Source: an uncultured Desulfobacterales bacterium (GTDB lineage: Bacteria > Desulfobacterota > Desulfobacteria > Desulfobacterales > Desulfococcaceae). Taken from it: 59,939 nucleotides of DNA. Position 1 is the stretch's first letter, and every line of letters starts with the position of its first letter. The position numbers and the translations under genes were made by a program. The stretch lies in NCBI GenBank assembly GCA_964534335.1, contig CAZHPS010000001.1, forward strand, positions 1 through 59,939, read 5' to 3'. The notes beneath the pieces were generated by a model, which was not told where the DNA came from, did no database searches, and saw nothing but the letters and a program-made list of their open reading frames with translations. This document shows positions 413 to 52,300 of this stretch, piece by piece.

Positions 413-1918
413 ATGAATCCGGTAACAGAGAATACCCTGTTTTACGGAGATAATTTAAAAATACTCCGTGAACATATCCCTGCGGAAAGTGCTGATCTGA
501 TTTATCTTGATCCGCCTTTCAACTCAAACCGGAATTATGATGTTATTTTCAAAGATGAAAGCAGAGAAAATTCTGAGACCCAGATAACCGCATTTGAGGA
601 CACATGGCACTGGGACAGAAAAGCACAGGAAACGTATCATGAACTGATTGCAAATGCTCCTGCGCATGTGGGAAAAATGATAAGTGCCTTAAGGGATTTT
701 ATCGGAGCCAATCAGGTCACGGCCTATCTGGTAATGATGACTGTCCGGTTAATTGAACTTCACAGAGTGTTAAAATCAGCAGGCAGCTTGTATCTTCATT
801 GCGATCCGACAATGAGTCATTATCTGAAGATTGTGCTGGATACCATTTTCGGAAAAGAAAATTTCAGAAATGAAATTGTATGGTGTTACAGAAAATGGAA
901 TGTGAGACAGTCCCAGTTTCCTTCCAACCATGATATTATTTTGTTTTACACAAAAACGCAGACAAATTTTTTTCATACCCTGTTTTTGCCAAAATCCCCC
1001 AAATCATCGGGAAAAGGAAAGAAAATTCAAAGTATTATCGGCGATGACGGGAAAAGAAAATCTGTTTATCTGGATACAGATTCAGAAGGGACTCCGGTTC
1101 CGGACTGGTGGGAAATTCCAATAATCAATCCTATGGCTAATGAAAGACTTGGCTATCCCACACAAAAACCGCTTGCCTTATTGGACAGAATCATTCAATC
1201 CAGCAGTAAGGAATACGACACGGTTCTTGATCCCTTCTGCGGGTGCGGGACTTCCATTCACGCTGCGGAGAAACTGAACAGAAAATGGATAGGAATTGAC
1301 ATCACGCATCTTTCCACTTCGCTTCTGAAATACAGACTCAAAGACGCGTTTGATCTCACAGAACGAAAAGATTATGATGTCATGGGAGAACCGGAGGATT
1401 TGGCCGGCGCACAAAGACTGGCACAGGAAAACCGGTATCAGTTTCAGTGGTGGGCATTGTCTCTGGTTCAGGCAAAACCGGTTGGCGGTGTCCAAAAGAA
1501 AGGAAAGGACAGAGGCATTGACGGGGTTATCACTTTTATTGATGACAGCAGCCAAAAGGCAAAACAGATCATTGTTCAGGTGAAAAGCGGCAAAACCGGG
1601 GCAAAGGACATCCGGGATTTAATCGGCACGGTGAACAATGAAAGAGCGCAGATGGGCATTTTCATCACGCTGAATGAACCGACAAAGGACATGAAAACAG
1701 CCGCAGCAGAAGCAGATTTCTATCATTCTTCAGGCTGGAACAAAGATTTTCCCGGAATACAGATCATGACCATAGAAGATCTTCTGAACGGAAAAACCCC
1801 GGATCTGCCTCCGGTCAAAAGGACATTTAAGCAGGCAAAAAGGGATGTAAGGGAACAGGACAGATGGAAACAGAATGGTATGGACAGTTTTGAAACAGAC
1901 GGAGGATATGTTCAATGA
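413..1918 (+). CDS. Beta-class N6-adenine/N4-cytosine DNA methyltransferase fused to a C-terminal Mrr-type PD-(D/E)xK restriction endonuclease domain
   Basis: Motif IV DPPF lies at aa 33-36 (nt 509-520), ahead of the AdoMet motif VLDPFCGCGTS, which is the beta permutation. The C-terminal 150 aa carry DRGIDGV...IIVQVKSGK...IRDL.G...GIFITL, the Mrr_cat pattern. Confidence 0.8.
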   Translation: MNPVTENTLFYGDNLKILREHIPAESADLIYLDPPFNSNRNYDVIFKDESRENSETQITAFEDTWHWDRKAQETYHELIANAPAHVGKMISALRDFIGANQVTAYLVMMTVRLIELHRVLKSAGSLYLHCDPTMSHYLKIVLDTIFGKENFRNEIVWCYRKWNVRQSQFPSNHDIILFYTKTQTNFFHTLFLPKSPKSSGKGKKIQSIIGDDGKRKSVYLDTDSEGTPVPDWWEIPIINPMANERLGYPTQKPLALLDRIIQSSSKEYDTVLDPFCGCGTSIHAAEKLNRKWIGIDITHLSTSLLKYRLKDAFDLTERKDYDVMGEPEDLAGAQRLAQENRYQFQWWALSLVQAKPVGGVQKKGKDRGIDGVITFIDDSSQKAKQIIVQVKSGKTGAKDIRDLIGTVNNERAQMGIFITLNEPTKDMKTAAAEADFYHSSGWNKDFPGIQIMTIEDLLNGKTPDLPPVKRTFKQAKRDVREQDRWKQNGMDSFETDGGYVQ

Positions 1919-4900
1919 AAATACAAAATATTCGTTTTCAGAATATCAGCACACTAAAAGGACAGTGGGAAATCGCTTTTGACCGATCTCCGTTTGCGGA
2001 GTCCGGAATTTTTGCCATCACCGGCCCCAACGGCGCAGGAAAAACCACAATTCTTGATTCGCTCACACTGGGACTTTACGGCGAAACCCCCCGTCTGAAG
2101 AATCCCGGAGAGGAAATCATGACACGGGACTGTGCTGAAACCTCCTCTGAAGTCACTTTTTCCGTCAATGATGCCATTTACCGTTCCCAATGGCAGATCC
2201 GCAGAAAAGGGGGAAAAACCAATCCGCCTGAAATGAAACTCTTTTCCCTTAACGGCCATGAAACGCTTATGGATGACAGGCCTGCGGCAGTCCGCAGCCG
2301 GATTGCGGAACTCACAGGGCTGGATTTCAAACGCTTCTGCCGCTCTGTCATGCTGGCACAGGGGGAATTTGCCGCTTTTCTCCATGCCCTTGATACAGAA
2401 CGATCTGAAATTCTCGGAAAGATTATCGGCCCTGAAGTCCGGTCTGAATATGTCCGGCAAACCCTGCTGAAAGCTGACAGCGAAAATGAGAAATTTCTGC
2501 GTATGAAAGAAGAGACAGAGAAGTTTCCCCTGCCTGATCCGGGTACGGTAAGGGAAAAACAGGAAAGTCTTGCCCTTGTTCTGGATCAGTTGGAAGAAAC
2601 AGAACATGAACTGTCCGTGCTGGAGCAGAAAAAAGAGAGTTTTGAAACACGGGAACGTCTGCAAAAGGAGTATGAAAATGCCAGCCTGTCTCTGGCAGCA
2701 GCCACAGCGCGTCAGGAAGAAATGCAGGAACAGTTCCGGAAACTGGTCAAAGCCATAAAAGCCGTTCCCCTTCAGGCAGATATGGAAAGTCTTATTTCTC
2801 TGGAGACAGCAGAAGGTGCGGCAGGGAAAATGCTGGAAGAACAGATCTCCGGAATTCCGCTTACTGAGGATCAGCTTATGTCCCTGAATGAAAGGGAAAA
2901 GCAGCATCAGGCAGAACTGGAGCAGGTTCGCGGGATGTGGAATGAACAGAAGGAATTCATTGAAAAAGCACTGGAAATCACGCGGGAGATGGAATCAGCC
3001 ACATATGATTTCAGGAAAAAAGTGGAACGGTATGAAGCTTTGGAAAAAGAGCAGAACCTGAATCTGCAGGAACAGAATGAACTGAAAAACCGGATTGCGG
3101 AAAATGAAACCGCAGAGAAAGAAATCGGAAAGTGGCTCGCTGACAGGGCAGCAGATCGGGAACTGGAAACAGAGATTCCGCTTATCCGGGAGGCTGTGGA
3201 AAATCTGGGACGTATCCGTTCGGAACTGGCTGAAGCAGGAAAACAGCATTCAGAAGCCCTGAAAGCCGAAGAAAAAGCAGCGAAAATTTTCGGAAAAGCT
3301 GAGCGTGTGATTACAGTCATCCGGGAAAAGCGGGAAAAAATCAGTCTCAGGGGCATGGAAAGAGAAAACACTGTCCGGGAACTGCTGGGCAGTGATTCCC
3401 TGGAAGATATTGAAAACCGGTATAAAACGCAGAAAGAAAAACTGTGCGCCGCAAAAAAACTCCTGTCCATCAGCAAAGATTATGTCAAACAACTGGCAGC
3501 AAACGGCGGAAGACGGCAGAAACTGGAAGAGGAACTGAGTGCGGCAGAATCCCAATATGCTGATTTGTCACAGCAGCTCCTGCAGGAAGAGAATATTTAT
3601 ATTACGCTGAATCATGCCAATGCTGCCCTGAAATATGAATCAGAACGGGCTTTGCTGAAAACAGGGGAGCCATGTCCTATGTGCGGTTCCCCGGATCATC
3701 CCTTTGTCACGCACGGACTTCCTTATGAGGGTGATCCCCGTAAAGCACTCAAAGATCAGGAAGAGCGGATAAATACTATCCGGAAACAGATGGACAGACT
3801 TTCAGATGAGATCGAAAATCTGCGGAAACAGAGCAGGAAAACCGAAATCCTGCGGGAGGAATGGGACAGACTGTTCAGAAATATTGGTCAGGACTGGGTG
3901 ATTGAAGATGTGAAAACCGTCAAAAATGGCTTCCGGGAACTGAAAAAAGAAACCCGCAAACAGAAAATCCATTTCAAGGCTGTGTACAAACATGGAAAAA
4001 AGGCAGAGAAATATCAAAGGGCTGTTCAGAAAAAAACTGACAAACTCAATGAAAAACAGATGGTGGCAGAGAGACTGCGGAATGATCTGAATATTCAGCA
4101 GGGTATCACAGCAACTCTGGCCAGGGCGGCAGAGGAGATTCAGAACCGGGAACATGCACAGATTCAGAATCTGCAGGAGAAAGTGAAAAAATACGGTTAT
4201 GAAATTCCAGCACCCGGAAAAGAGAATATTCTGCTGCCGGATATGGAAAAAAAGCGGGATGTATTTCTGGAAAAGGTTCAGACGCAGGCCGGTCTGAAAA
4301 ACATAGCGGAAGAATTGTCCCAAAAAGCCCGGATTCTGCCGGAATCCCTGAAAATGCTGAAAAAAGAGGCAGATGATCTGGAAGAAAAGATCAGAACCGC
4401 GCAGGAAAAACTCACAGAACTGGAAATCCGGAGGAAAGAGGTCTTTGATTCCGGTGACCCGGTGCAGGTGAAACAGGAACTCGAAGACGCTATCCGTGCA
4501 AAAACAGAAGAACTGGCTGAAATTATTCAGGAGAAGGAAAATGCAGATCAGAAACTGGCTGATATGCGGCAAAAGAAGGAACTGGCTGAATCTGAATATA
4601 AGCGTTTGCAGAGAGAGAAGAAAAATCTGGAGCATGGCCTGAGTGCCAAATCTCTGGCAGCGGGGTTCAGCAGCATTGAGGAAGTAAGGGAAAATCTGAT
4701 GCCTGCTGAAGAGCAGGATCGCATTGCAGCACTGCAGAAAGAGATGGAACAGGCCGTTGCTGAAAACAGGGCCGGAGTTGACAGTATCCGGGAAATGCTC
4801 GCTGCTGAATCCGCGTATCAGGAACAGACTGAATCTCCTGATATTGTCCATGAGAAAATCCGTGAAACCCGGAAAATACGGGACAGACTGGCCGGAGAAT

Positions 4901-5499
4901 CTGAAATTTCTGAAAAAACAGTGAAAAAGCATGAATCCCTTGAACAGGAATATACGCAGATGATAAAAAATCTGGAAGAGCAGGAAAAACGCTGTCACCG
5001 GCTCAATTCCCTGAAAAGTCTTATGGAATCCGGTGATGAACCGGAAATCCGTAAGCAGATTCAGCATTTCATGCTTAACCGGCTGCTGGAGAAAAGCAAC
5101 CGGCATATGGAGGAACTGAGCGGGCATTATTATATCCGGCGCCGGGATCCTTCAGGTATGAGTCTTGAAATTGAGGATATACGGCATAAGGGAATGCGCA
5201 GATCCGTGAAAACACTTTCCGGAGGAGAAAGTTTTCTGGCAAGTCTGTCGCTGGCTCTGGGGCTTTCGGAAATGGCGTGCAGTGACCGGAAGATTGAATC
5301 TCTTTTTCTGGATGAGGGTTTTGGTATGCTGGATGATGAAACTTTGTACAGGGTCATATCTGCTTTGAAGAATATCAAAGCCAACGGAAAAATGGTGGGT
5401 GTGATTTCCCATGTAAAAAGGCTGGAGGATGAAATTCGGACACAGATCAAAATAGAAAGACTTTCAGATGGGCTTAGTCAGATTGAAATTATGGCATAA
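1915..5499 (+). CDS. sbcC: SbcC/Rad50-family SMC-like ATPase with zinc hook
   Basis: Walker A GPNGAGKTT (nt 2023-2049), a very long Glu/Lys-rich coiled coil and a CPMCGSPDHP hook (nt 3673) that resembles the E. coli SbcC hook. Signature LSGGESFL and Walker B LFLDEGFGMLD are present. The ATG overlaps the methyltransferase stop as ATGA (1915-1918). Confidence 0.85.
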   Translation: MKIQNIRFQNISTLKGQWEIAFDRSPFAESGIFAITGPNGAGKTTILDSLTLGLYGETPRLKNPGEEIMTRDCAETSSEVTFSVNDAIYRSQWQIRRKGGKTNPPEMKLFSLNGHETLMDDRPAAVRSRIAELTGLDFKRFCRSVMLAQGEFAAFLHALDTERSEILGKIIGPEVRSEYVRQTLLKADSENEKFLRMKEETEKFPLPDPGTVREKQESLALVLDQLEETEHELSVLEQKKESFETRERLQKEYENASLSLAAATARQEEMQEQFRKLVKAIKAVPLQADMESLISLETAEGAAGKMLEEQISGIPLTEDQLMSLNEREKQHQAELEQVRGMWNEQKEFIEKALEITREMESATYDFRKKVERYEALEKEQNLNLQEQNELKNRIAENETAEKEIGKWLADRAADRELETEIPLIREAVENLGRIRSELAEAGKQHSEALKAEEKAAKIFGKAERVITVIREKREKISLRGMERENTVRELLGSDSLEDIENRYKTQKEKLCAAKKLLSISKDYVKQLAANGGRRQKLEEELSAAESQYADLSQQLLQEENIYITLNHANAALKYESERALLKTGEPCPMCGSPDHPFVTHGLPYEGDPRKALKDQEERINTIRKQMDRLSDEIENLRKQSRKTEILREEWDRLFRNIGQDWVIEDVKTVKNGFRELKKETRKQKIHFKAVYKHGKKAEKYQRAVQKKTDKLNEKQMVAERLRNDLNIQQGITATLARAAEEIQNREHAQIQNLQEKVKKYGYEIPAPGKENILLPDMEKKRDVFLEKVQTQAGLKNIAEELSQKARILPESLKMLKKEADDLEEKIRTAQEKLTELEIRRKEVFDSGDPVQVKQELEDAIRAKTEELAEIIQEKENADQKLADMRQKKELAESEYKRLQREKKNLEHGLSAKSLAAGFSSIEEVRENLMPAEEQDRIAALQKEMEQAVAENRAGVDSIREMLAAESAYQEQTESPDIVHEKIRETRKIRDRLAGESEISEKTVKKHESLEQEYTQMIKNLEEQEKRCHRLNSLKSLMESGDEPEIRKQIQHFMLNRLLEKSNRHMEELSGHYYIRRRDPSGMSLEIEDIRHKGMRRSVKTLSGGESFLASLSLALGLSEMACSDRKIESLFLDEGFGMLDDETLYRVISALKNIKANGKMVGVISHVKRLEDEIRTQIKIERLSDGLSQIEIMA

Positions 5500-6250: not shown

Positions 6251-9200
6251 ATGAAAAGGGCAAAGTTAATAATATCTATTTTTTTTATATGGTTAATTTG
6301 CATGGTTAATATGTTGGCAGCTCAAACAACGACCAAAGAACAGGCTGAAACTATTGCAGCCAATCTGCTGACTCTTGACAGCACCCCTTTATCTGCCACA
6401 CTGAGCACTGCAATCGAAAAAACGGAAACATTTTACGATGCAGATGGCATAAATCCCATTTATTATGTCATTTCTTTATCACCCGCCGGATATATAATCA
6501 TTTCGGCAGATGATTTGATTGAGCCTGTCATCGCATTCAGTAGCACAGGAGTATTCGATCTTTCTGCAGAAAATCCGATTATCTCTCTTCTTTTAAATGA
6601 TTTATCTTCAAGAATATCTGAACAGATCGAATTGAATCTTGATAAAAGACTTACCGGAAGAGGGCGTATAACGCCTTCATCACAAAAAGCAAATGAAAAA
6701 TGGACATTCCTGTTAAATTACGATGCATCATTGGATTATGGATTATCCACCATCAATGATCCAAGAGTAACACCTTTGATTCAAAGCAGATGGAGCCAGG
6801 GAACAGTTTCTGGCAATTATTGCTATAATTATTACACACCAAATCATTATCCATGCGGTTGTGTTGCAACTGCCATGTCACAAATTATGCGTTTTTTTAA
6901 TCATCCAAATACCGGAGTCGGCACCCCGTCTTTTAACATTTATGTTGATGGGGTCTCACAGAGCAGGAAGCTGAGAGGTGGCAATGGAAGCGGAGGTGTA
7001 TATAACTGGACCAGTATGCCATTAGTTCCGACTTCGACATCAACAGCCACACAGTTACAGGCAATAGGCACTCTTACCCATGATGCTGGGGTTTCTGTAA
7101 ATATGTCATATACGGACAGCGGTTCGGGAACAGATACGCGTAAAGCGGCGGATGCGTTTGTGAATACCTTTGATTACAGCAATGCCATTAAAGGATATAA
7201 TAACGGCAATACCATTGTATCGTCCGATTTGAATAAAATGATCAATTCAAATTTAAATGCAGGCATACCCGTTATGTTAGGAATTACTGGCACCGCCGGA
7301 GGACATGCCATTGTTGCGGATGGCTATGGGTACCATTTATCTTCTCTATATCATCATTTAAATATGGGGTGGTCCGGCAGTGATGATGCATGGTATAATC
7401 TGCCAAACATTGACAGTAATCCGAGCTTTACAAGTGTTTATAAATGCGTATATAATATATATAATAGTGGAACAGGAGAAATCATCAGCGGCAGAGTGAC
7501 GGATGTAAACGGCAATCCCCTTCAGGGGGCTTCGGTTTTTGCGACTCGCAGCGGTGGCGGCACTTATTCGGATGTCAGCGATGCCAATGGGCTGTATGCC
7601 TTTCCCCGTATTTCTTCGGATTCATCTTATACGATCAGTGCCACAAAGAGCGGTTATACTTTTACATCACAAAATGTTTCCATTCAAAAATCTGTCAATA
7701 ATACATCCGTAACCAATCTCTGGGAAGTCAATTTTGCAGCCGGTGGCATAACAGATGATGCATATGAAAATAATGATACGTTGGCAACGGCTTATGATCT
7801 AAGCACAAAAGAAATAATATGGCTATCTAATATCAATGGGTTAGGCATTCAGGCAGACTCGGACTGGTATAAAATATCCGTAACAGCCGGATATGAACGG
7901 GTACTGATTGATTGCCGGTTTGCGCACTCCTCCGGTGATATTGATATACAATTATACAATGCATCCGGCAGCCTTCTTACTTCATCAAGAAGCCTGAATA
8001 ACAATGAATTTATTGACTACAAGGTTTCTTCTTCAGGAATATACTATATCAGGGTGTTCTATGGCAACGCGGGTAATACATATGATTTGTGGTGGGATGA
8101 CCTACAACCGCCTGTCGCAGATGATAATTATGAAGAAAATGATACAATGGCAACGGCTTATGATCTCAGCAACAGTGAAACTGTATGGCTTTCCAGCATC
8201 AACGGATATGGAATTCAGGGGGACGACGACTGGTATAAAATATATATAACAACTGGATATGAAAGACTATTACTTAACTGCAACTTTACCCATACTGATG
8301 GAAACATTGATATTGCTGTATATAATTCGGCAGGAACGCTGATCAGGTCATCCACAACATTAACCGATAATGAAACAATTGATTTTCTGCTTCCTGCCAG
8401 TGGAACTTATTATATCAGGGTTTACAATGGAAATGCACGCAATACTTATAATCTTCAGTGGGATGATCTCATTGCTTCAAGCGCTGACGATACATATGAA
8501 CAAAATGATTTTATTGATGAAAGTTATGATTTTAGCAATCGTGAAAATACATGGCTCCATACCATCGACGGATATGGCATTCAATCAGATGATGATTGGT
8601 TTAAAATTGATGTCACATCCGGATTCCAACGTGTGCTGGTAGATTGTCGTTTTTTCCATGCTGACGGAGATATTGATATCACTTTGTATGATGCATCAGG
8701 AAACTACCTGACATCATCAAACAGCATCACTGATGATGAGTTTATTGATTATACGGTTTCCGGAGCAGGAACATATTATATTAAAGTATATTATGATGAC
8801 GCCGGTAACACGTATGATCTTTGGTGGGATGATATTTCACCTACTTCGGGGGATGATGCCTATGAACCCAATGACACATATTCATCGGCCTGGACTAATG
8901 GAACAAACTGGGAACAGAAATGGCTTCACCGGGTGAACGGATGGGCAATCCAATGGGACAACGACTGGTATAAAATTGATGTTACCAGCGGATATGAAAG
9001 GCTTTTCATTGAATGTCTTTTTTCAGACACGGATGGCGATATTGATATTGCATTGTATGATTCGTATGGCAACATTCTCACTTCTTCAAGAGGAATTGAG
9101 GATGAAGAATTTATTGATTATACGGTCTCTTCTTCCGGCTCATATTATATTAAGGTTTATTATGACAACGCAGGCAATACATATGATCTTTGGTGGGATG

Positions 9201-10120
9201 ATCTGTCTCTGCTAAACGGTGATGATATTTATGAACAAAATGACACCATCTCGTATGCTTGGTATCCCGGAACAAACTGGGAGCGACAATGGCTGCATAG
9301 CATTTATGGAAGATCTGTACAAAGAGATGAGGATTGGTATAGAATTGATGTTACAGGTGGTTATGAACGTCTGCTGATTAATTGCAAATTTAACCATGAA
9401 GATGGTGACATTGATATTTCCCTTTATAATTCAAACGGTTCTCTTTTAAAATCTTCAAGAAGTTATGATGATGAAGAATTTATTGATTATACTGTGCCGT
9501 CTTCAGGAACATACTATGTGAAAGTGTTTTATGGAAATGGCGGGAATTCTTATGATCTTTGGTGGGATGATGTATCGCCGTCTTCCGGTGATGACGCTTA
9601 TGAAGAGAATGATACTTTGCAGACAGCATATGATATTAGTTCAAAGGAGACAGTATGGTTATCCAATATTAATGGGTTAGGTATTCAGGCGGATAGTGAC
9701 TGGTACAAAATTGCTGTAACACCTGGATATGAAAAGGTTCAGATAGATTGCAGATTCACACATTCTGATGGTGATATAGATGTCTCTTTCTATGATTCAA
9801 CCGGTAATTTTATTACATCCTCAAGAAGCACTGACAATGATGAATTTATCAACTATACAGTTCCAAATTCCGGAACATACTACATTAAGGTGTTTTATGG
9901 AAATACAGGAAATACTTATAATCTATGGTGGGATGATTTAAAAAACAGTATAGGCGATATAAATGGATTAGATGGTGTCAATCTGGCTGATGCCATAATT
10001 GGTTTAAAGATTTTAGCTGGAATAAATTACAGTAATATAAGCATGGGAGCGGATGTAAACAACGATGGCAAAATTGGTATGGAGGAAATTATATATATAT
10101 TGAATACACTTTCTCAATAA
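6251..10120 (+). CDS. Secreted multidomain protein: signal peptide, streptopain-type (C10) cysteine peptidase with propeptide, CarboxypepD_reg-like domain, 6 PPC (pre-peptidase C-terminal) repeats, C-terminal dockerin-like module
   Basis: Signal peptide plus SD GGAGGAAG. C10 hallmarks are QSRWSQG...CGCVATAMSQIMRFF (Cys) and GGHAIVADGYG (His). GRVTDVNGNPLQGASVFA marks the CarboxypepD_reg-like domain. Six repeats of about 118 aa follow, of the form DDxYExND...DxDWYKI...GDIDIxLY...GxYYIxV...YDLWWDD. The end carries DINGLDGVNLADAI / DVNNDGKIGMEEII, which are dockerin Ca-binding loops. Confidence 0.8.
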   Translation: MKRAKLIISIFFIWLICMVNMLAAQTTTKEQAETIAANLLTLDSTPLSATLSTAIEKTETFYDADGINPIYYVISLSPAGYIIISADDLIEPVIAFSSTGVFDLSAENPIISLLLNDLSSRISEQIELNLDKRLTGRGRITPSSQKANEKWTFLLNYDASLDYGLSTINDPRVTPLIQSRWSQGTVSGNYCYNYYTPNHYPCGCVATAMSQIMRFFNHPNTGVGTPSFNIYVDGVSQSRKLRGGNGSGGVYNWTSMPLVPTSTSTATQLQAIGTLTHDAGVSVNMSYTDSGSGTDTRKAADAFVNTFDYSNAIKGYNNGNTIVSSDLNKMINSNLNAGIPVMLGITGTAGGHAIVADGYGYHLSSLYHHLNMGWSGSDDAWYNLPNIDSNPSFTSVYKCVYNIYNSGTGEIISGRVTDVNGNPLQGASVFATRSGGGTYSDVSDANGLYAFPRISSDSSYTISATKSGYTFTSQNVSIQKSVNNTSVTNLWEVNFAAGGITDDAYENNDTLATAYDLSTKEIIWLSNINGLGIQADSDWYKISVTAGYERVLIDCRFAHSSGDIDIQLYNASGSLLTSSRSLNNNEFIDYKVSSSGIYYIRVFYGNAGNTYDLWWDDLQPPVADDNYEENDTMATAYDLSNSETVWLSSINGYGIQGDDDWYKIYITTGYERLLLNCNFTHTDGNIDIAVYNSAGTLIRSSTTLTDNETIDFLLPASGTYYIRVYNGNARNTYNLQWDDLIASSADDTYEQNDFIDESYDFSNRENTWLHTIDGYGIQSDDDWFKIDVTSGFQRVLVDCRFFHADGDIDITLYDASGNYLTSSNSITDDEFIDYTVSGAGTYYIKVYYDDAGNTYDLWWDDISPTSGDDAYEPNDTYSSAWTNGTNWEQKWLHRVNGWAIQWDNDWYKIDVTSGYERLFIECLFSDTDGDIDIALYDSYGNILTSSRGIEDEEFIDYTVSSSGSYYIKVYYDNAGNTYDLWWDDLSLLNGDDIYEQNDTISYAWYPGTNWERQWLHSIYGRSVQRDEDWYRIDVTGGYERLLINCKFNHEDGDIDISLYNSNGSLLKSSRSYDDEEFIDYTVPSSGTYYVKVFYGNGGNSYDLWWDDVSPSSGDDAYEENDTLQTAYDISSKETVWLSNINGLGIQADSDWYKIAVTPGYEKVQIDCRFTHSDGDIDVSFYDSTGNFITSSRSTDNDEFINYTVPNSGTYYIKVFYGNTGNTYNLWWDDLKNSIGDINGLDGVNLADAIIGLKILAGINYSNISMGADVNNDGKIGMEEIIYILNTLSQ
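7751..9945 (+). repeat. Six in-frame tandem repeats of about 354-366 bp encoding the PPC domains
   Basis: Each unit starts at a GATGAT..TATGAA..AATGA (DDxYExND) boundary. The units are diverged, not identical. Confidence 0.8.
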
Positions 10121-11575: not shown

Positions 11576-11701
11576 ATTGACAATATAATAAGGAGGTGTA
11601 CTGGCACTAACGCAATGGAGTAAGACCGTAAGTTTTTGTTTTGTGTGTTTCTGTTTACGTGCATTATTGTCTTTTTTGATATTTCATTTTATTTATTTTT
11701 T

Positions 11702-11776
11702 GAAAAAGCCAAACTCATCGTGAGGTGAGGACGGAAAGCTACGGGTCTTAATGGGTAAGACAGCCGGGTTGCCGAA
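11702..11776 (+). ncRNA. Candidate c-di-GMP-I (GEMM-I) riboswitch
   Basis: GCCAAAC is followed by the hairpin CUCAUC-GUGA-GGUGAG, which has a GNRA tetraloop. Then come GGACGGAAAGCUACGGGUC, the hairpin GUCUUA-AUGGG-UAAGAC, and CAGCCGGGUUGCCGA. From memory, this parallels Vc2 segments GGCAAACC, GGGACGCAAAGCCUCCGGCC and GGUAGCGGGGUUACCGA. It sits immediately 5' of the SD AAGGAGG and the ATG at 11791. Confidence 0.55.
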
Positions 11777-11790
11777 TTAAGGAGGCAGCT

Positions 11791-12399
11791 ATGAAAAAGT
11801 TTTTGATTTCAATTTGTATGGTGGTTTTGGTTTTTGGTCTTGTAAATAATGCAAATGCTTTAAGTTATTATATAAGCGATGTTGTTGCTGAGTATGAGTA
11901 TAGTGGAACGTATTTGTTTACTGTTACAAATCCCAATAATGATCCGGGAGTGACAGGGAATTTTGAAGAAGATAATCTTGAAGCAGCTTTGGAATCCTGG
12001 TTTACTGCTAATGCCTATGCAGCTAAAGATGTTGAATTAACCTATTACGATAGGGTTGATTATCCGGACATGGCCTCATCTTTAATGTCTGTGGAGTATG
12101 ATGAATCCCCTCGTGGAACTTGGTCTACCGGTGATCAGGCAATAGAATATTACACGGTTAAAGCTTCAACTGGATACGCAATTTACTGGCTTGGTGAACA
12201 AGGAGCATCTTCCGGGAATTGGACAACAGAGCATTTACTGGCTGGCAAGAATGGAAATATTCCCACAGTATCGCATCTGACCACTTTCAATCCTATTGGC
12301 GATCCCGGAACAAACCCGGTTCCTGAGCCCGCCACCATGTTCCTGCTTGGCAGCGGACTGGTCGGTGCCGGTGTTTTCAGACGGAAAAGAAGCAAATAG
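11791..12399 (+). CDS. Secreted PEP-CTERM sorting-domain protein
   Basis: N-terminal signal peptide. The C-terminus VPEPATMFLLGSGLVGAGVFRRKRSK has the PEP motif, a TM helix and a basic tail. Strong SD. Confidence 0.85.
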   Translation: MKKFLISICMVVLVFGLVNNANALSYYISDVVAEYEYSGTYLFTVTNPNNDPGVTGNFEEDNLEAALESWFTANAYAAKDVELTYYDRVDYPDMASSLMSVEYDESPRGTWSTGDQAIEYYTVKASTGYAIYWLGEQGASSGNWTTEHLLAGKNGNIPTVSHLTTFNPIGDPGTNPVPEPATMFLLGSGLVGAGVFRRKRSK

Positions 12400-15295: not shown

Positions 15296-15413
15296 TCAGG
15301 CCATCCTTTTCATTAAAAGATTATTCTGCTGTTTTCTGCGTTTCTTTGGGAAAGGAAGCGAACACGGAAATTTTTCTGACATACGCTTTCAGCATGGAAC
15401 TGTCTCTGATTTA

Positions 15414-15521
15414 AGTGATTTCCGGAAAAGAATATCCCGCCAAAGCTGCATAAGCTTCCGGACTGTTCCCTGTTCCCTGTGCCTGTGAACTGAACCGGGA
15501 TATTTATTTTCATAAATCACT
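15414..15521 (+). mobile_element. MITE family R1 copy 2
   Basis: Aligns with 54..154 and has the same termini. Confidence 0.6.
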
Positions 15522-15619
15522 TTAAGTTCTTCCTTCATATCCTTCAGCCCGGATTCAAGAATTTTCAGTTTTTTGCAGCAATGAGGAACTGATAATTACG
15601 CACCTTCTGTATTCCCTGT

Positions 15620-15865
15620 TTGTCCGGAATGTTCATCAGTATCCAGTCAGGAACTGATGATATGCAATCACAGTACATCAGTCAACCGGCTTTTGAAAAA
15701 GAAGAAAAATGTTTTAATCTGGCAAAAATGCGGAGGGTAGTGGAAAGGACATTCGCATGGATATTCAACCTCCGCCGGAATTTGAAGGATTATGAAATTC
15801 TCACACGGAAAAGCGGTTTTTTTTGGGGGAACCTGAATTTTTTGATGCGCGAAAATTTTCGCTGA
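15620..15865 (+). pseudogene. IS5-family DDE transposase, C-terminal fragment only
   Basis: RRVVERTFAWIFNLRRNLKDYE matches the IS5-family C-terminal signature RWxVERTFAWLxxxRRLxKDYE. No N-terminal or catalytic part is present upstream. Confidence 0.65.
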
Positions 15866-15897
15866 CTTACTTATTCAGTAATGCCGTTCTCATTATT

Positions 15898-15932
15898 CCC
15901 AGCCCTGCAAATCAGGGCTGGGATTTCTTTTT
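15898..15932 (+). terminator. Rho-independent terminator-like hairpin
   Basis: CCCAGCCCTG-CAAAT-CAGGGCTGGG followed by ATTTCTTTTT. Confidence 0.55.
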
Positions 15933-15992
15933 GTCTGAACCCGGATTTAGAGGATTAAGCCGGATATTCCTTTATTTCTGAACCCGGATTAA

Positions 15993-16084
15993 GGGTTTGT
16001 AAAAAATATCCCATTTCAGTTTACAGGCACAGTCCGGAAGCTTATGCTGCGCTTTGACGGGATATTCTTTTCTGGAAATCACCT
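15993..16084 (-). mobile_element. MITE family R1 copy 3 (inverted, one terminus degenerate)
   Basis: Reverse complement of the 54..154 family. It abuts the stop codon of the HAD hydrolase gene. Confidence 0.55.
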
Positions 16085-16710
16085 TACAATCCCAGAATAT
16101 CTGCAATCTCTTTGAGACCGGAGATATGAAAATCCGCAGCCAAATCCGGATTTTTAAAGGCTGCAAACGCCACACCCGCGGCGTTTGCAGCCATTTCATC
16201 CAACTGCGTATCTCCGACATACAAAGCCTGCACAGGGGACAGTCTGAAATGATCCAGTATTTTGAGCAGTTCTTCGGGATGGGGTTTGGGATTTTCCACA
16301 TCCAGCGCAGTCACCACCATGTCAAAATCATCTTTCAGATCAAATTCAGCCAGCACCCTGGGCATGGTGTCTGTCCGGTTGGTGGCAATCGCGGTTTTAT
16401 ACCGGGGCCGAAGCTTTCTGAGCAGTGGCTTCAGAAAAGGCTCCGGCTCCATATGCGGTATAAAATCCCCATAGGGCATGATTTTGCGGAAAGCCTGCGC
16501 GGCCGCATATTCCGCAGGATCAGGAAACAGACGGGACAGGGATTCATCTGCCGTGTGCATATGCGCGTAGGCAAAATCCCTGTCCGTCATTTCAGCCTTT
16601 CCCAGATGATGCAGAATGCGGTTGTAGTAAATGCGGTTGACATTGGCCGTATCAAACATCACGCCGTCACAGTCCAGAATCACGGCTTTGATTTCTCTGA
16701 CATTCACCAT
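16084..16710 (-). CDS. HAD-superfamily hydrolase (phosphoglycolate phosphatase-like)
   Basis: Motif I ILDCDGVMFDT, motif III/IV region YVGDTQLD, 208 aa. Its ATG directly follows the upstream stop (TGAATG). Confidence 0.8.
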   Translation of the reverse strand: MVNVREIKAVILDCDGVMFDTANVNRIYYNRILHHLGKAEMTDRDFAYAHMHTADESLSRLFPDPAEYAAAQAFRKIMPYGDFIPHMEPEPFLKPLLRKLRPRYKTAIATNRTDTMPRVLAEFDLKDDFDMVVTALDVENPKPHPEELLKILDHFRLSPVQALYVGDTQLDEMAANAAGVAFAAFKNPDLAADFHISGLKEIADILGL

Positions 16711-17523
16711 TCAGTTGGCTTTCCCGGATTCAGGTTTCGCATCTGTTTTGTCCGGTGCAGCAGGCGGAGGATCAAAGATATTGCCATATACATTGATCTT
16801 CAGTTCCGGTCTGATAGGACTGTCGGTTTTCAGAATGATATTATCCGCATATCGTGTTTTTGCCTGTTTCAGATTCACCACTGTCAGCAGATATTCCGTC
16901 ACATTTTCCTTCTGAACAGATTCCATATCCACCCGGATATTGTCAGGTCCTTCGGTTTTCACCTCAAGAATTTTAAACGGATACTCAGGCTGCGGAACAA
17001 TGCTCACCTTTGATTTGATCTCATTCCCCACCTGCCCGGTCATACGGACACGGTTCGGACTGATGGTGACAAACTGTTTCACATTTCCCTGGATCGTCAG
17101 ACTGATCTGTTTGCGTGCCGGATCCGGATCATTTGTGAACACCGTAATATTCTTGGACAGCTTTCTTCCGCCATAACCTGTTGTGTTGACTTTTATTTCA
17201 ATTTTTCCCCCGCCGCCGGCAGGGATTTGCTTCGTGAAAGAAGCAAGTGTGCAGCCTCAGCCGGTATTGACGCGTTCAATCTGCAGTTCCGCGTCCCCTT
17301 TGTTCTGAACCACAAAGCTGTAGATAACCTCATCTCCGTCCAGGACAGGATCAAACTCATGCACGGGCTGGGGGGCAAAGGCAAGCGGTGCCGCTGTTTT
17401 GTCTGCCTGATTTACAGCATCTCCTGCTCCACCGGTTTTATCTGCTTCCCCCCCTGTTCCGAAACAGAGGGTTCCGGCAGTCAGAATAAGGAAAATGACC
17501 ATACCGAATGTTTTCATTTTCAT
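16711..17523 (-). CDS. DUF1573-like exported (lipo)protein with in-frame TGA at 17257..17259; candidate selenoprotein (alternatively a nonsense-disrupted gene)
   Basis: ORFs 17257..17523 and 16711..17142 are in the same frame, and 17143..17256 has no other stop. The read-through sequence is ...LQIERVNTG-[TGA]-GCTLASFTKQIPAGGGGKIEIKV..., which is the DUF1573 V..SCGCT...P.G..G.I.V core with TGA at the first Cys. Signal peptide MKMKTFGMVIFLILTAGTLC and SD AAGGAG are present. Confidence 0.6.
17227..17246 (-). promoter_or_regulatory. Candidate SECIS-like hairpin downstream of the in-frame UGA
   Basis: On the mRNA the sequence is UGA-GGCUGCACAC-UUGCUUC-UUUCAC-GAAGCAA. This is a 7-bp stem starting 11 nt after UGA with a 6-nt loop. 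The loop lacks the GU seen in E. coli fdhF. Confidence 0.35.
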
Positions 17524-17778
17524 TGTGTTATGCTCCTTTTACCATGATCTGTTTATACAAATTTATACAAACTGCAATTATGGTGAATCCAGAAAAATCA
17601 CGGGAAAAACAGGAATCCGGATTTTTTGTGAATCCATCACTGACAATGAACCTGCGAAAAACCGGAAGATCCGCATTTTTCTGAAAACAGTGTGTTTGCA
17701 GAAAAAGACCGGCTTTTCACATATCTGATTATTATAATCCTGTCTCAGCAATTATTCAACCCGGTTTTCATGTTTTTT

Positions 17779-20736
17779 TCAGTCTGCCCCGCCTGAGTCC
17801 CCATCCGTGCGCGGAAACACCTCCACATCTGCTGTCTGTGTTTCATTTTCCTGCCCTGTTCCCATTTCCAAAGCCCGCCCCTGCTGGGGCTGATTTGATT
17901 CCCTCATTCCCTGCATGCCTGACATGGGGATATGTGGCATGACATAGCGGATGTTTTTGATAATATCGGCAAATATCTTGTTGAGATCTTTATGCAGATC
18001 CGAGGCCACAATATCCTTGAAATCCTGACTCAGCAGCATTGCAACTGTAACCCTGTCAATCTGGTCAGGATTTTTTTCCAGAATCCCCACAAGCCGCTGC
18101 TTCACTTTGGTAATCATCATCATTTTATACTGATCCGGGGAAATGGCTCTGAGCAGATTCGGGGATTTTTCCAGAATTTCCTCCACTGCCTGAATGCCCC
18201 CTTCATAATGTGCCTTGATCAGAGACAGTTTTGCATAGGCATTGATGTCTCCGGCCTTGAGTTTTTCCACAGCCTGCAGTTTGGCTTCGCTGAAGGCTTT
18301 TCTCAGATCATATTCGGTAATATCGCGGAGTGTGGCTGCCTCTTTTTCCGCGAGTTTTCTTTTGCCATCCAGCATGATCAGTTTCATCATGGCCAGTTGT
18401 TTGGTGCCTTTTCTTTCAATATCGAATTTTTCCACTTCCGCGCGTTTGGCACTTTCAGCTTTGGACAGTTCAAACTGCAGTTCCTGCTGTTTGGCAATAA
18501 ATTCCTCCTCTTCGCTCAGTCCCTTTCCCTCATAATAGAAATCACCAATCTGCACTTCCACACTGATGGGATCAATAAAACAGAGCAGACGGCTGCATCC
18601 GCTGGGACTGTAAAGACGTTCTCTTACAGTATCTATTTTTTCCATGATGCCTTCCACATCATGGTCAATCTGCTCATGGACTTTGGTCCAGTCAATGACA
18701 TAATTCTGCGGTTCCAGTTTCTGTGCATTCTGATGATCCGCAGGGGTCGCAGGCCGCAGTTTCAGTTTGTGGATATGCTTGAGAACAGAGGGATTTTCAT
18801 CACGGCGTTTGTCGCTTTTGATATATTCTTCCAGAAAATTATAATGGATTTCATAATGTTCTCTCAGATGCCGGGTCAGTTTTTCCCGGAAAACATAGGG
18901 ATTGCTTTTGGGTTTGAGGCAGTATTCCAGAACCAGTGCAGCAAGCCGGGGTTCACTGCGCGCACGCGCAGTTGCTGCGGAAATATCCAGATATTTGTTG
19001 AAAATGCCTTTGATCAGATCTTCGAGATCCCCTTTGGGAAAATCCAGCAGGGGCAGTACAGTTTTGCTGCTGCTTTCGGGCGATGTCTTTGTTTTGCTGA
19101 TTCTGGCAATCTGTCTCTTTTTTTCCACCTTTCTGGCATCATTGCTGTTTTCCCGTTTTTCCTCAATCTGCTGTGTCTCCTCTCCGAAAATATGCACCTC
19201 TCCTGCTTCGGAAATGGACAGTTCCTTGCCGGTCAGCAGGGGCCAGAGACTGAAAACCAAATCAAAACCGTCTGTCATCAGCCGGAGGCACATGGCATGC
19301 AGCAGAGGTTTGGCCTTTCCTTCCAGCAGTCTGCTGATAAGAAACTGCCAGGCCCGATCCTCAGCCTCTTTCTGCACCCACCGGATTTTGTCTTCTTCTG
19401 TATTTCTGATTTTTCTGATTTTATCTTCCGGAGCAGCCTGACCGGGTCTGCTGATTTCCTCCTGTGCTTTTTTGCGGATTTCCTCTATATCCTCCTGACA
19501 AACATCTGCCCGGAGACGTTTGACCTCACTGAGAATGGCAAGGGTGTCAGGTTTCACGCCCGGCAGATTCGGATTGGCAAAAACATCGGCAATAATCTGG
19601 AGAATGCTTCTGCGATCCTTTTCCGGTTTTTTTATTTCCCCTTCCTGAATATCCAGCACTTTCCAGACATACTCAACTTCCTCCAGAGAAATTTCCCTTT
19701 TCCGGTTGATACCCTCCAGCAGAACCTCGGCAGGCTGCAGCAGTTGGAAACGGACAATCAGGCTGCTGTCAGTACCGGGACGGGGATTGGCTTTAAGCAG
19801 ATTCAGCTCGGCCTGGAGCTGCATGGCCCTTTGTCTGCGGGGGCCGTAAGCAAAAACCTCACTCCCGTCCTTTTTCCATACCCTGCCATCCCGGAAATCC
19901 ACAGGCCCGTCATCACTGGCTTTGAGTTCCTTTGCCATTTTTTCCACTTCAGCCTGTTTTTCCTGTTCCTGTCTGGGATCCTCCACAGCCACACAGGTGA
20001 TGAAGCGGTTGGTGCTGCGGGTCTGCACCTTGTCCAGTTCAAGTGCAATATTGTATTTGATGGGCAGTTTGTAAATAATGGTCAGATCAAAGCCCTCCCG
20101 CGTGTCAAGGCTTGTCCGGTCTCCGGGCGCTGGATTAAGCCAGAGCATATTGTGATACGGCGGAAATCTGCGGAGAATCATTTCATAATCGCCTGTGATA
20201 ACTGCCATTTCAAGATACTGGCGTATCATTTTGTTTATGGGGCGGACGAGAAATGACTGGGTAAGATAGATATGGGATTCAATATTGGGCCGCAGCAGTT
20301 TGAGGAAAAAATTCAGATTCTGGTAATTGGTAAATTTTTCCTTGAGATCCGGATTGTGGGCAATATTGAGATTCATGAACAGATATTTGAAAAATCTGAT
20401 TTTTTCTTCTATATCCGCGCGCAGTCCGTATCTTTTCCCGCCCACATTTTCAAGCCATATGTCAAAAAGCTGTTTGCCAAGCGGATGGGTAAAAACAGCT
20501 TTTTCCTGCTCAGAAGCCCAGAAATAAATGTATTTTTTTACCCAGGGCCGCATTTTTCTCCACAAAGGATACATTCTGGCAACCGAATGGTAAAATTCAT
20601 CCGCAATTTTTCTGAATTCAATGATCTGCGCGCTGGCCAACCCCAGTTCAAAAAAGGAACGGGATGCGGCCGCAATGGGAAAAAATGCCCATCTTTGTGT
20701 GAACTCTCCCTGATTTATGGGATCTCCGTTTAACAT
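17779..20736 (-). CDS. Large (985 aa) cytoplasmic protein of unknown function, Lys/Glu-rich helical, no motif I recognise
   Basis: Uninterrupted ORF with an ATG start and balanced composition. The 774-aa ORF on the opposite strand is Phe-rich, the typical antisense shadow of AAA/GAA-rich coding. No P-loop or catalytic motif was seen. Confidence 0.7.
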   Translation of the reverse strand: MLNGDPINQGEFTQRWAFFPIAAASRSFFELGLASAQIIEFRKIADEFYHSVARMYPLWRKMRPWVKKYIYFWASEQEKAVFTHPLGKQLFDIWLENVGGKRYGLRADIEEKIRFFKYLFMNLNIAHNPDLKEKFTNYQNLNFFLKLLRPNIESHIYLTQSFLVRPINKMIRQYLEMAVITGDYEMILRRFPPYHNMLWLNPAPGDRTSLDTREGFDLTIIYKLPIKYNIALELDKVQTRSTNRFITCVAVEDPRQEQEKQAEVEKMAKELKASDDGPVDFRDGRVWKKDGSEVFAYGPRRQRAMQLQAELNLLKANPRPGTDSSLIVRFQLLQPAEVLLEGINRKREISLEEVEYVWKVLDIQEGEIKKPEKDRRSILQIIADVFANPNLPGVKPDTLAILSEVKRLRADVCQEDIEEIRKKAQEEISRPGQAAPEDKIRKIRNTEEDKIRWVQKEAEDRAWQFLISRLLEGKAKPLLHAMCLRLMTDGFDLVFSLWPLLTGKELSISEAGEVHIFGEETQQIEEKRENSNDARKVEKKRQIARISKTKTSPESSSKTVLPLLDFPKGDLEDLIKGIFNKYLDISAATARARSEPRLAALVLEYCLKPKSNPYVFREKLTRHLREHYEIHYNFLEEYIKSDKRRDENPSVLKHIHKLKLRPATPADHQNAQKLEPQNYVIDWTKVHEQIDHDVEGIMEKIDTVRERLYSPSGCSRLLCFIDPISVEVQIGDFYYEGKGLSEEEEFIAKQQELQFELSKAESAKRAEVEKFDIERKGTKQLAMMKLIMLDGKRKLAEKEAATLRDITEYDLRKAFSEAKLQAVEKLKAGDINAYAKLSLIKAHYEGGIQAVEEILEKSPNLLRAISPDQYKMMMITKVKQRLVGILEKNPDQIDRVTVAMLLSQDFKDIVASDLHKDLNKIFADIIKNIRYVMPHIPMSGMQGMRESNQPQQGRALEMGTGQENETQTADVEVFPRTDGDSGGAD

Positions 20737-49265: not shown

Positions 49266-49345
49266 GAAAACGGTGTGAGGAAAATTTTTCAATCTGCCGA
49301 ATATGTAAAAACCGAAAAATATCATCAGAAAGAGGAGTGTGCATC

Positions 49346-52300
49346 ATGAAAAAAATACATTTTTTTCCGGTATGTTTTTTTATTTTTGTCCTGTCCGCCC
49401 TGCCCTGCCTTCTCTGTGCCGGAGACGATCAGTGGTCTGTCATGATCCGGCCAAAGGCCAGAATCCTCAACAGTGTATGGGGAAATTCCGAAACCGGTGT
49501 TTTTGCGGTCGGGGACTGCGGGACCATACTCCGCCATGACGGAAGCACATGGCAGATGATGGAAAGTCCGACAGAGGCAAATCTCACAGATATTTGGGGA
49601 ACAGGAAAAAACAGCCTGTTTGCTGTGGGAGATAAGGGAACCGTGCTTCGCTGTGACGGAACCCGCTGGCAGCAGATGAACAGCCTGACAGAAACAAATC
49701 TCAAAGCAGTCAGGGGGAACAGCACCTCCGGTATCTTTGCTGTGGGAGAAAACGGAACAATTATCCGCTATGACGGAACAGCATGGACAGCAGTGAACAG
49801 CCCGACAGCAGTGACACTTTACAGCATGTGGGAAAGTCTGGGAACAGATATTTTTGCCGTGGGCGGAGGAGGAACCATTCTGCGCTATGACGGCAACTCA
49901 TGGAATCCCATGTCAAGCGGTGACGGCAGAAATCTCCGTACAGTATGGGGATTTTCCTCTTCAGATGTTTACGCGGCCGGCTCCGGTTCGCTGCTGCATT
50001 ATGACGGAAGAAACTGGCAGACTGTGGAATCCAATTTTTATCCGATACGGGATCTGTGGGGAAATTCCGGAACAGATTTGTATGCGGTCGGCGCTTCCCT
50101 GTCCGGTCAGCCGGTTGCACTTTGGTATAATGGCAAAGAATGGAAGAATACCGGTGCAGACACGGATATTCCCCTCAACAGCATATGGGGAGACGGAAAA
50201 GGACTTGTGCCTGCCGCAGGCGGAAATTCACAGAAAGGCGGTATCATTTATGCCTATAATGGTCAGGAATGGCAGGAAATCTGGCATCAGCCTGAATCTG
50301 ATCTGACCCGGAAAATGTATGCGGTACATGCTTTTTCCGAAAAGGATGTTTTTGCAGTGGGAGAAGCCGGAGCCATCCTGCATTATGACGGTTCCCAATG
50401 GGCTGCTATGGAAAGCGGAACAGAAAAGGGGCTTTGGGCAGTATGGGGAATTTCCGGAACAGATCTTTTTACTGTGGGGGAAGCCGGAACCATCCTGCAT
50501 TATGACGGAACCGCATGGCAGGAAGTGAACAGCGGAATCACGTCAGATTTGTATGATATATGGGGATATGCGTCTGATTCCGGTGAACCGGCTGAAATAT
50601 TTGCTGTGGGAGACAAAGGCAATGTTCTGCACTGGAAAAATGGCAAATGGGAAGCAATGTCCAGCGGCGTGGGCATTCTGCTGGAAGGAATCTGGGGAAT
50701 CAAAACTGAAAAAGGGGCAGATGTGTTTGCCGGGGGAAACAAAGGAGTGATTCTCCGGTATAAGGACGGCAAATGGGTACAGATGGAAAGCCCTGTGGAA
50801 AAAAATATCCGGGATATATGGGGATATTCGGATGAAAACGGTGTCACTGTGTTTGCGGTGGGCGACAGGATTTCGGAAAAAAAGGCAAATTTTCTCTGTT
50901 ATGAGGGAATGCAGTGGACTCTGGCAGATATGGGACAGGGTGAATTCCTGCGGACAGTCTGGGGAGACGGAGAGACAGACATTTTTATCGCTGGTCAGAA
51001 CGGATTTATCCGCCATTATGACGGAAAAACATGGAATTCCGCAGACAGGTCAGAGAAAACAGGCATTGTCCATATGCACGGAATCCCCAAAGCTCCGGGC
51101 CGGGTTTCACGTATGTTTGCCGTGGATGGAGACGGTGCTGTTCTTCAGTACACGGATATAAATGTTTTTCTGCCGGAATCTGTGACCGAGGGCGGTTCTC
51201 TCGCAGAAGGGACTGTGCTGCTTCCTTATGCTCCGGCTGCGGATACTCAAATTTCCCTGACATCGGATGATCCATCGGAAATCACTGTCCCCGCGTCTGT
51301 CACTGTTCCCGCAGGCCAGACTTCCGCTGTATTTTCAGTCACACCTGCTGATGACACTGTGGCGGACGGAACCCGGAATGTCATTATCCGGGCATCGGCT
51401 GCTAATTACAATTTCGGAAGTGAAATGATCCGCGTGCATGACAATGAATCCGCTGTTCTGAATCTCATTCTTCCGGATGCGGTCTTTGAAGGAGAGGAAC
51501 TGCCGGCAGGTTCCGGAACCCTGATCGTCACTCCTGTACCGGAAGAGGAAATATCCGTATCCCTGCATTCCTCTCATCCGGACAGACTTTCTGTTCCCCG
51601 AAAAGTAACCATTCCCGCAGGTCATGGCAGCATCCGCTTTGATATGCTGGTGGGAGATGATACGGAAAAAGACAATACGCAGACCATTACCGTAACTGCC
51701 TCGGTCAGCGGATGGACTTCAGGCAGTGCCGGGATTCAGGTGGCAGATAATGACCGTTACGGACTGACGCTGAGCATCCCGGATACAGGGGCTGAAAAGG
51801 ACAAACCGCTTTCCGGAACAGTTTCCCTTACAGAACCTTTTGAAACCGATCTCCTGATTCATCTTTCAGCAGATGATACTTCCGAACTCATGGTTCCGGA
51901 AACTGTGACCATTCCGGCAGGCAGCATTTCCGCTGCTTTTGAACTGTCTCCGGTGGCAGATTATCTTTCGGACAATCCCCAGAGCGTTTCTCTTACAGCG
52001 GACGCCCCGGGTTTTGCGTCTGCAAAAGCCCGGATCAGCATAACAGACAGTGACAGCATCTGGCAGCCCATACATCTGGGAACCAGTATGCTGCGGGCAG
52101 TATGGGGCAGTTCGGAAAAAGATGTGTTTGCTGTGGGATGGGATGGCATGATTCTGCATTATGAAGGGGATCAGTGGAATGTCATGGACAGCGGAACCGA
52201 TATTTCTCTGCGCCATGTATGGGGTCACGACCGGAACACCGTGTTTGCGGTGGGCGGAGCTACGGACGGAGCCGTCATTTTGCGATATGACGGCAGCAAA

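Follow-up and report, generated by a model that had tools for sequence, protein, structure and literature searches.

In 2007, Zhang and Gladyshev added OS_HP2, the 'Olavius symbiont hypothetical protein 2', to the selenoprotein families; they had found it in two symbionts of Olavius algarvensis, delta1 and delta4 (PMC1976440). In their 2008 study of ocean metagenomes, the family was equated with pfam07610 (DUF1573), its motif was given as UxC (U, selenocysteine; hereafter Sec), and two Sec-containing and 354 Cys-containing homologues were counted (PMC2398784). Reviews of 2022 and 2026 list the family again, with the motif UGC (PMC9312934, PMC13188914). Here, we report a complete OS_HP2 gene on the minus strand (17523..16711) of contig CAZHPS010000001.1 from an uncultured Desulfobacterales bacterium. 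Its frame is interrupted by an in-frame TGA, which is very probably a genuine Sec codon. The window analysed is one complete contig of 59 939 bp from a metagenome-assembled genome (MAG).

The window protein shares with the OS_HP2 family the domain, the U-G-C (UxC) motif, in which U takes the place of the first of the two Cys in CGC, the alternation of Sec and Cys at this site and the deltaproteobacterial (Desulfobacterales) setting. Nothing essential is different, and the window copy carries no selenoprotein label in its source record. A first-pass annotation, made from the sequence alone, had proposed Sec at this position and had stated that DUF1573 was not among the selenoprotein families known to it. 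The Sec call is correct, but the novelty that it implied is wrong: the family has been in print since 2007, was identified with pfam07610 a year later and is curated as NF041425.

The Sec insertion sequence (SECIS) elements of bacteria are described by a consensus (bSECIS) with a loop of 3–9 nt, a stem of 4–16 bp, a G in the first two loop positions, a distance from UGA to loop of 16–37 nt and a minimum free energy (MFE) of −7.5 kcal/mol or lower; a subset of bacterial elements fail this consensus (PMC13188914). The Thermodesulfobacteriota, including the Desulfobacterales, are among the most selenoprotein-rich bacteria (PMC13188914). For OS_HP2 itself, the legend to the SECIS figure of the 2007 paper leaves this family out and names the other five of the six that were new (PMC1976440). 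The hairpin analysis of the window adds the SECIS detail that is missing there.

The OS_HP2 reading frame and its internal UGA

The OS_HP2 frame comprises 270 codons followed by a terminal TGA (16713..16711), and its sole interruption is the TGA at 17259..17257. It opens with an ATG at 17523, and a Shine–Dalgarno sequence, AAGGAG (17538..17533), was recognized by direct sequence inspection 9 nt 5' of this start. From the ATG, an open reading frame (ORF) of 88 codons extends to the internal TGA, which closes it. Past this point a further 181 codons are free of stops in the same frame until the terminal TGA, and the following gene starts directly after it (TGAATG). The source record lists an 88-aa and a 123-aa product separately, not one gene. 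The first-pass annotation had placed two ORFs in one frame with a stop-free interval of 114 nt between them. This is borne out: the interval (17143..17256) contains no stop, and the frame runs on to 16711.

The internal TGA is residue 89 of the read-through product, in the peptide context IERVNTG-[TGA]-GCTLASFTK. This product matches the NCBIfam profile NF041425.1, 'OS_HP2 family (seleno)protein', at 134.8 bits (cutoff 100), with residues 51–149 aligned to profile positions 2–98 of 98. When U is replaced by C, it matches the Pfam domain DUF1573 (PF07610) at 65.3 bits (cutoff 26.1) over residues 52–148, so the domain spans the internal TGA. The two scores agree with the DUF1573 core proposed earlier. 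On the contig, the Ig-like OS_HP2/DUF1573 domain (residues 51–149) occupies 17077..17373 and holds the U-G-C motif. In the homologue alignment, the TGA falls, as had been claimed, on the first Cys of the S/G-C-G-C-T motif, and homologues carry Cys in the same column.

The Sec column was compared in 72 protein homologues. About 20 have Cys (S/G-C-G-C-T), 11 have 'W' and about 40 are C-terminal fragments that begin just past the column. In the public protein sets (P0002–P0072), most Sec-form OS_HP2 genes are mis-called: in 11 the Sec residue is written as Trp (code 4/25 calls), and some 40 are represented by C-terminal fragments alone.

The corresponding DNA sequences show two alternative states of the codon. 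TGA occupies this codon in four orthologues from separate Desulfococcaceae or Desulfobacterales MAGs (62–80% identity), and the frame beyond it is intact and conserved. The set was enlarged by fetching the contigs of further W-class and fragment-class proteins. This gave another eleven Sec forms, the most distant at about 37 per cent protein identity, again with TGA at this codon and an intact downstream frame. There are thus, with the window included, 16 distinct Sec-form sequences from separate assemblies, all with TGA. The Cys state was sampled by a metagenome scan whose pattern encoded [CW] as TGC/TGT/TGG and so retrieves Cys forms only; its 61 loci, with TGC or TGT at the Sec codon, constitute a control set. 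Cys and TGA therefore alternate in this column among relatives of the window gene, one of the checks that the first-pass annotation had proposed.

Hairpins downstream of the UGA

A hairpin beginning 11 nt after the UGA had also been reported, and it is present with that spacing. Hairpin 1 (17227..17246, minus strand), UUGCUUC-UUUCAC-GAAGCAA, has a stem of 7 bp with a conserved 5-bp core (17229..17244) and the 6-nt loop UUUCAC. The first base of its stem is the 11th nucleotide after the UGA and its loop begins 17 nt after the UGA. Folded alone, hairpin 1 has an MFE of −8.3 kcal/mol (z = −4.59), which none of 200 shuffled sequences equalled. Folding, specificity to Sec forms and covariation make it the best-supported SECIS candidate of the locus.

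The core is formed, in fixed register, in 13 of 14 Sec forms and in only one of 20 same-register Cys forms; the mean MFE is −7.8 kcal/mol in the 14 Sec forms and −3.4 kcal/mol in the Cys forms. Covariation was analysed in an ungapped alignment (A2) of the 16 Sec forms. Covariation free of unpaired cells is seen at two core pairs, one being CG in nine sequences, UA in four and UG in three, and the other UA in nine and CG in seven. Pairing reaches 90 per cent in register, compared with 30–46% once the partners are shifted against each other. Both sides are changed in 14 cells, and none of 500 shuffles attains the covariation score; since the sample includes close relatives, the independent changes are fewer than these cell counts imply. 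The hairpin following the UGA is thus both specific to the Sec forms and covarying, another of the checks proposed at the outset.

The pair swaps accompany changes of the encoded residues. Ala..Lys is written GCU..AAG, and Val..Arg is written GUC..AGG or AGA. For the 'mixed' Sec forms the codon choice was predicted, correctly in both cases: Val..Lys is GUU..AAA and Ala..Arg is GCC..AGG, with the stem kept in each. No comparable coupling of residues is found in the Cys forms.

Hairpin 1 shares with the bSECIS elements (bSECISearch model; E. coli fdhF type) the position of a stem-loop in the coding sequence soon after the UGA, and its loop size (6 nt), stem length (7 bp), distance (17 nt) and MFE (−8.3 kcal/mol) are all within the consensus limits. 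The minimal fdhF element of Liu et al. (1998) reportedly also has a stem beginning 11 nt after the UGA. The difference lies in the loop. The loops of the 16 Sec forms open with UU, CU, AU or GU, and G comes first only in sequence L094, so that in 15 of the 16 the loop does not open with GG or GU. The consensus of the Sec-form loops is N-U-W-Y-R-C. The caveat of the first-pass annotation, that the loop lacks the GU of fdhF, thus applies to nearly the whole set. On these comparisons, hairpin 1 reads as a Sec-linked element that is non-canonical in its loop.

Two Cys-form metagenome loci, L012 and L014 (TGT; VKTSCGCTAVSYTRQIP...), retain five and four, respectively, of the five core pairs of hairpin 1. 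These may be relics of a SECIS element left after a recent Sec-to-Cys conversion.

Pairs of Cys and Sec paralogues within one genome are known from the [NiFe] and [NiFeSe] hydrogenases of Desulfovibrio and from the Sec/Cys isoenzymes of Methanococcus. The same situation is found for OS_HP2 in a related MAG (JAWKPW010000024.1; L003/L006), where a Cys copy (L006:6001-6705) lies directly upstream of a Sec copy (L006:7020-7781). In contrast to the Desulfovibrio and Methanococcus pairs, these copies are tandem and 94 per cent identical, and their differences are nearly confined to the 40 nt that surround the Sec codon and the hairpin: there are 15 differences in nt 121–540, of which 13 fall in nt 208–247, the stretch of the Sec codon and hairpin 1. 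In the Cys copy the equivalent of hairpin 1 folds at 0 kcal/mol. The pattern resembles gene conversion that spared a protected patch, or else replacement of the patch. Further differences between the paralogues are found near both gene ends. The window contains the Sec copy only, with no Cys paralogue.

By analogy with characterized bacterial systems, hairpin 1 (17246..17227) would recruit SelB with Sec-tRNA(Sec), the UGA at 17259..17257 would be decoded as selenocysteine, and translation would then proceed to the real stop at 16713..16711. An alternative that keeps Sec insertion assigns SelB binding to a second hairpin, or to a composite of both, and leaves to hairpin 1 the role of a spacer or helper. 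Hairpin 2 (17206..17225, minus strand), CCCUGCC-GGC-GGCGGGG, has a GGN loop and thus opens with GG, as the bSECIS consensus demands. It is the more stable of the two (−12.9 kcal/mol; z −1.78), and its pairs are better formed in the Sec forms (7.0 of 8) than in the Cys forms (5.05 of 8). On the other hand, the distance from the UGA to its loop is 39 nt, outside the range of 16–37 nt, and its covariation is not above that of shuffles in either of the two registers tested. Hairpin 2 is, moreover, unchanged in the tandem Cys paralogue, where the region is identical in both copies and seven of the eight pairs form; hairpin 1 alone differs. Because the codons of Ile-Pro-Pro/Ala-Gly-Gly-Glu-Gly are self-complementary, the Pro-Pro-Gly-Gly run is sufficient to produce hairpin 2, which probably arises as a side effect of coding but may have a helper role. 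The assignment to hairpin 2 or to a composite is accordingly unlikely, while remaining the best of the alternatives considered.

One candidate pairing within hairpin 2 was also considered. The third base of a Gly codon appeared to be C opposite Ala (GCC) and U opposite Pro (CCC) (A2 columns 52 and 60), which suggested pairing, but the pattern was not above shuffled controls and was rejected.

Readings without selenocysteine

If the TGA were a simple nonsense mutation, a former Cys codon would have become a stop, and the gene would be dead or cut to 88 residues. A single change from TGC or TGT to TGA would do, and the two short products of the source annotation fit such a picture. This was the caveat attached to the first-pass annotation, and it is excluded by the 16 sequences that have TGA at the same codon over about 37–80% identity, with intact frames, no frameshifts and a conserved protein, together with the Sec-specific, covarying hairpin that follows. 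Truncation or decay of homologues past the TGA was looked for and was not seen in the Sec forms. A stop here would also halve the Pfam domain. We regard a pseudogene as very improbable.

Equally improbable is a pair of functional genes, one for a short N-terminal fragment that is secreted and one for a C-terminal protein translated on its own, even though gene callers have repeatedly produced this picture. The GTG at 17142, at which the downstream 'ORF' starts, was found by direct sequence inspection to lack a comparable Shine–Dalgarno sequence, and there is no conserved start past the TGA, the 'starts' of the C-terminal fragments being scattered between columns +3 and +38 in the different homologues. 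Two genes would moreover split the DUF1573 beta-sandwich in mid-domain, and the Cys homologues are single polypeptides.

The weakest readings are an error in sequencing or assembly and an alternative genetic code, and we consider both barely credible. The window is a metagenome-assembled contig in which a true TGC or TGT might have been misread, but the same TGA occurs in independent assemblies from NCBI, ENA, JGI and Logan. The 11 database homologues with W in the Sec column might suggest that TGA encodes Trp, or else Gly, genome-wide (code 4 or 25), but in the 'W' homologue L007 the DNA has TGA in this column and the recorded protein is not reproduced under code 11, so that the 'W' class represents TGA mistranslated by gene callers; TGA also terminates 14 of the 25 Pfam-supported window genes, the OS_HP2 gene with its terminator next to the following ATG included, and the code is therefore not reassigned. 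Desulfobacterales use the standard code.

Several observations do weigh against Sec insertion here, or against hairpin 1 as its signal. Pfam annotation of 30 ORFs of the 59.9-kb contig revealed no selA, selB or selD, and ARAGORN detected no tRNA-Sec, and no other tRNA, in the same 59.9-kb window. The loop of hairpin 1 has no G as its first or second base, where the consensus places it, and a permissive Rfam scan of 17100..17350 gave no SECIS-like family and just a 10-bit snoRNA noise match. The presence of close relatives in the covariation sample counts on the same side. Finally, we found no selenium-labelling or mass-spectrometry evidence for OS_HP2; the papers of 2007 and 2008 and the two reviews offer computational predictions only. 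Set against the frame, the alternation of TGA with Cys codons and the hairpin, these points leave a genuine Sec codon in an OS_HP2 gene as the best explanation of the whole.

No second selenoprotein was found among the 30 Pfam-annotated ORFs of the window, and the other read-through TGAs in it are shadow frames and ordinary gene junctions.

The protein, its genomic setting and its significance

Read as a single gene, the locus would encode an exported OS_HP2 (DUF1573) selenoprotein with two Ig-like domains. The AlphaFold model examined is that of the Cys paralogue P0001, which is 76 per cent identical to the window protein. This model (pLDDT 92, pTM 0.76) consists of an N-terminal helix and two domains of beta-sandwich type, and a tight turn that joins strands 64–71 and 76–80 carries C-G-C; the helix (residues 5–19) has low pLDDT. 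A sequence profile search of the PDB gave no match. A fold search of the PDB returned generic tandem Ig-like (HYDIN/ASH-type) domains and 2qsv from Porphyromonas gingivalis, with no functional lead.

The window protein begins with a hydrophobic signal-like segment (about residues 1–24; 17452..17523), supported by its sequence, by the N-termini of homologues and by the helix of the Cys-paralogue model, and export appears likely on this basis. The first-pass annotation had described a signal or lipoprotein peptide. The signal-like helix stands; the lipoprotein part is doubtful, because the residues leading up to its Cys (G-T-L-C) misfit a lipobox and this Cys is not conserved in homologues. A membrane anchor or a signal peptide of the ordinary kind is more likely.

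In the mature window protein, U-G-C would lie on the tight turn between two beta-strands of the first domain. The alternation of Sec with Cys, taken with general knowledge of UxC and CxC motifs, points to a redox-active or metal-binding motif, and Sec at this position argues for a catalytic, redox-active or metal-binding role rather than a structural one. Among CxC redox motifs, a CGC peptide has been described as a mimic of protein disulfide isomerase. The DUF1573 motif shares with such motifs two chalcogen residues with one Gly between them on a tight turn, and a strained, reactive selenenylsulfide or disulfide is possible in principle; it differs in its scaffold, which is an Ig-like beta-sandwich and not a thioredoxin fold. 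Outside the cytoplasm, U-G-C would most likely either serve as a redox-active UxC centre, through a selenenylsulfide that forms reversibly, or bind a soft metal. No biochemical data for any DUF1573 protein were found in the literature.

The gene immediately downstream (16084..16710, minus strand) encodes a hydrolase of the HAD family (PF13419/PF00702). A HAD gene also follows OS_HP2 in loci L006, L007, L092, L093, L094 and L097, and the HAD protein of the window is 54 per cent identical to the neighbour in L092; the HAD gene is probably co-transcribed with the Sec-form OS_HP2 genes. Upstream (17779..20736, minus strand) lies a gene for a protein of 985 aa with no Pfam match and with charged, Glu/Lys-rich stretches. 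It is 48 per cent identical over its full length to the 927-aa product of the upstream gene in L006, and its synteny is limited to the closest relatives.

The Fe-ADH gene is separated from the HAD gene by an interval of about 790 nt (15296..16083) that contains only short overlapping ORFs on both strands and has no Rfam match. The sole match in the Rfam gathering scan of the window is a c-di-GMP riboswitch, a c-di-GMP-I-GGC aptamer (RF03167; 72.2 bits, E 3e-15) at 11699..11777 on the plus strand. The aptamer precedes, by 13 nt, a 202-aa gene (11791..12399) with a PEP-CTERM sorting motif at its end. Three other plus-strand loci were recorded. The product of 6251..10120 is a 1289-aa Peptidase C10 protein (streptopain-like). 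It has an Inhibitor_I69 prodomain and four PPC domains, and it also matches Por_Secre_tail, a sorting domain of type IX secretion that is unexpected in Desulfobacterales. The ORF at 49337..55828 encodes 2163 aa, and its lone Pfam signal is a weak match to the Rax2 beta-propeller. The region 413..5499 encodes a fusion of an N6/N4 DNA methylase with an Mrr-like endonuclease domain and, next to it and overlapping, an SbcC/Rad50-like ATPase of 1194 aa; the contig may start with a defence island here.

The practical outcome for OS_HP2 is a correction of annotation: the source record and dozens of homologue entries split or mistranslate the gene. The window adds one more unannotated member to a known selenoprotein family, together with comparative evidence on which hairpin is tied to Sec decoding, and the absence of a loop G from hairpin 1 bears modestly on the variability of bacterial SECIS recognition. 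We tentatively propose, at slightly less than even confidence, that OS_HP2 genes use a distinct class of bacterial SECIS element, namely a hairpin of 5–7 bp with a U/pyrimidine-rich hexaloop N-U-W-Y-R-C that has no loop G, conserved and covarying in at least 16 Desulfobacterales lineages. If this is true, the tandem Cys and Sec paralogues of one MAG would represent a swap experiment made by nature, which narrows the element down to about 40 nt, and SelB in these bacteria would recognize determinants other than those of E. coli or Moorella SelB, or would need the adjacent GGN-loop hairpin as a second contact.

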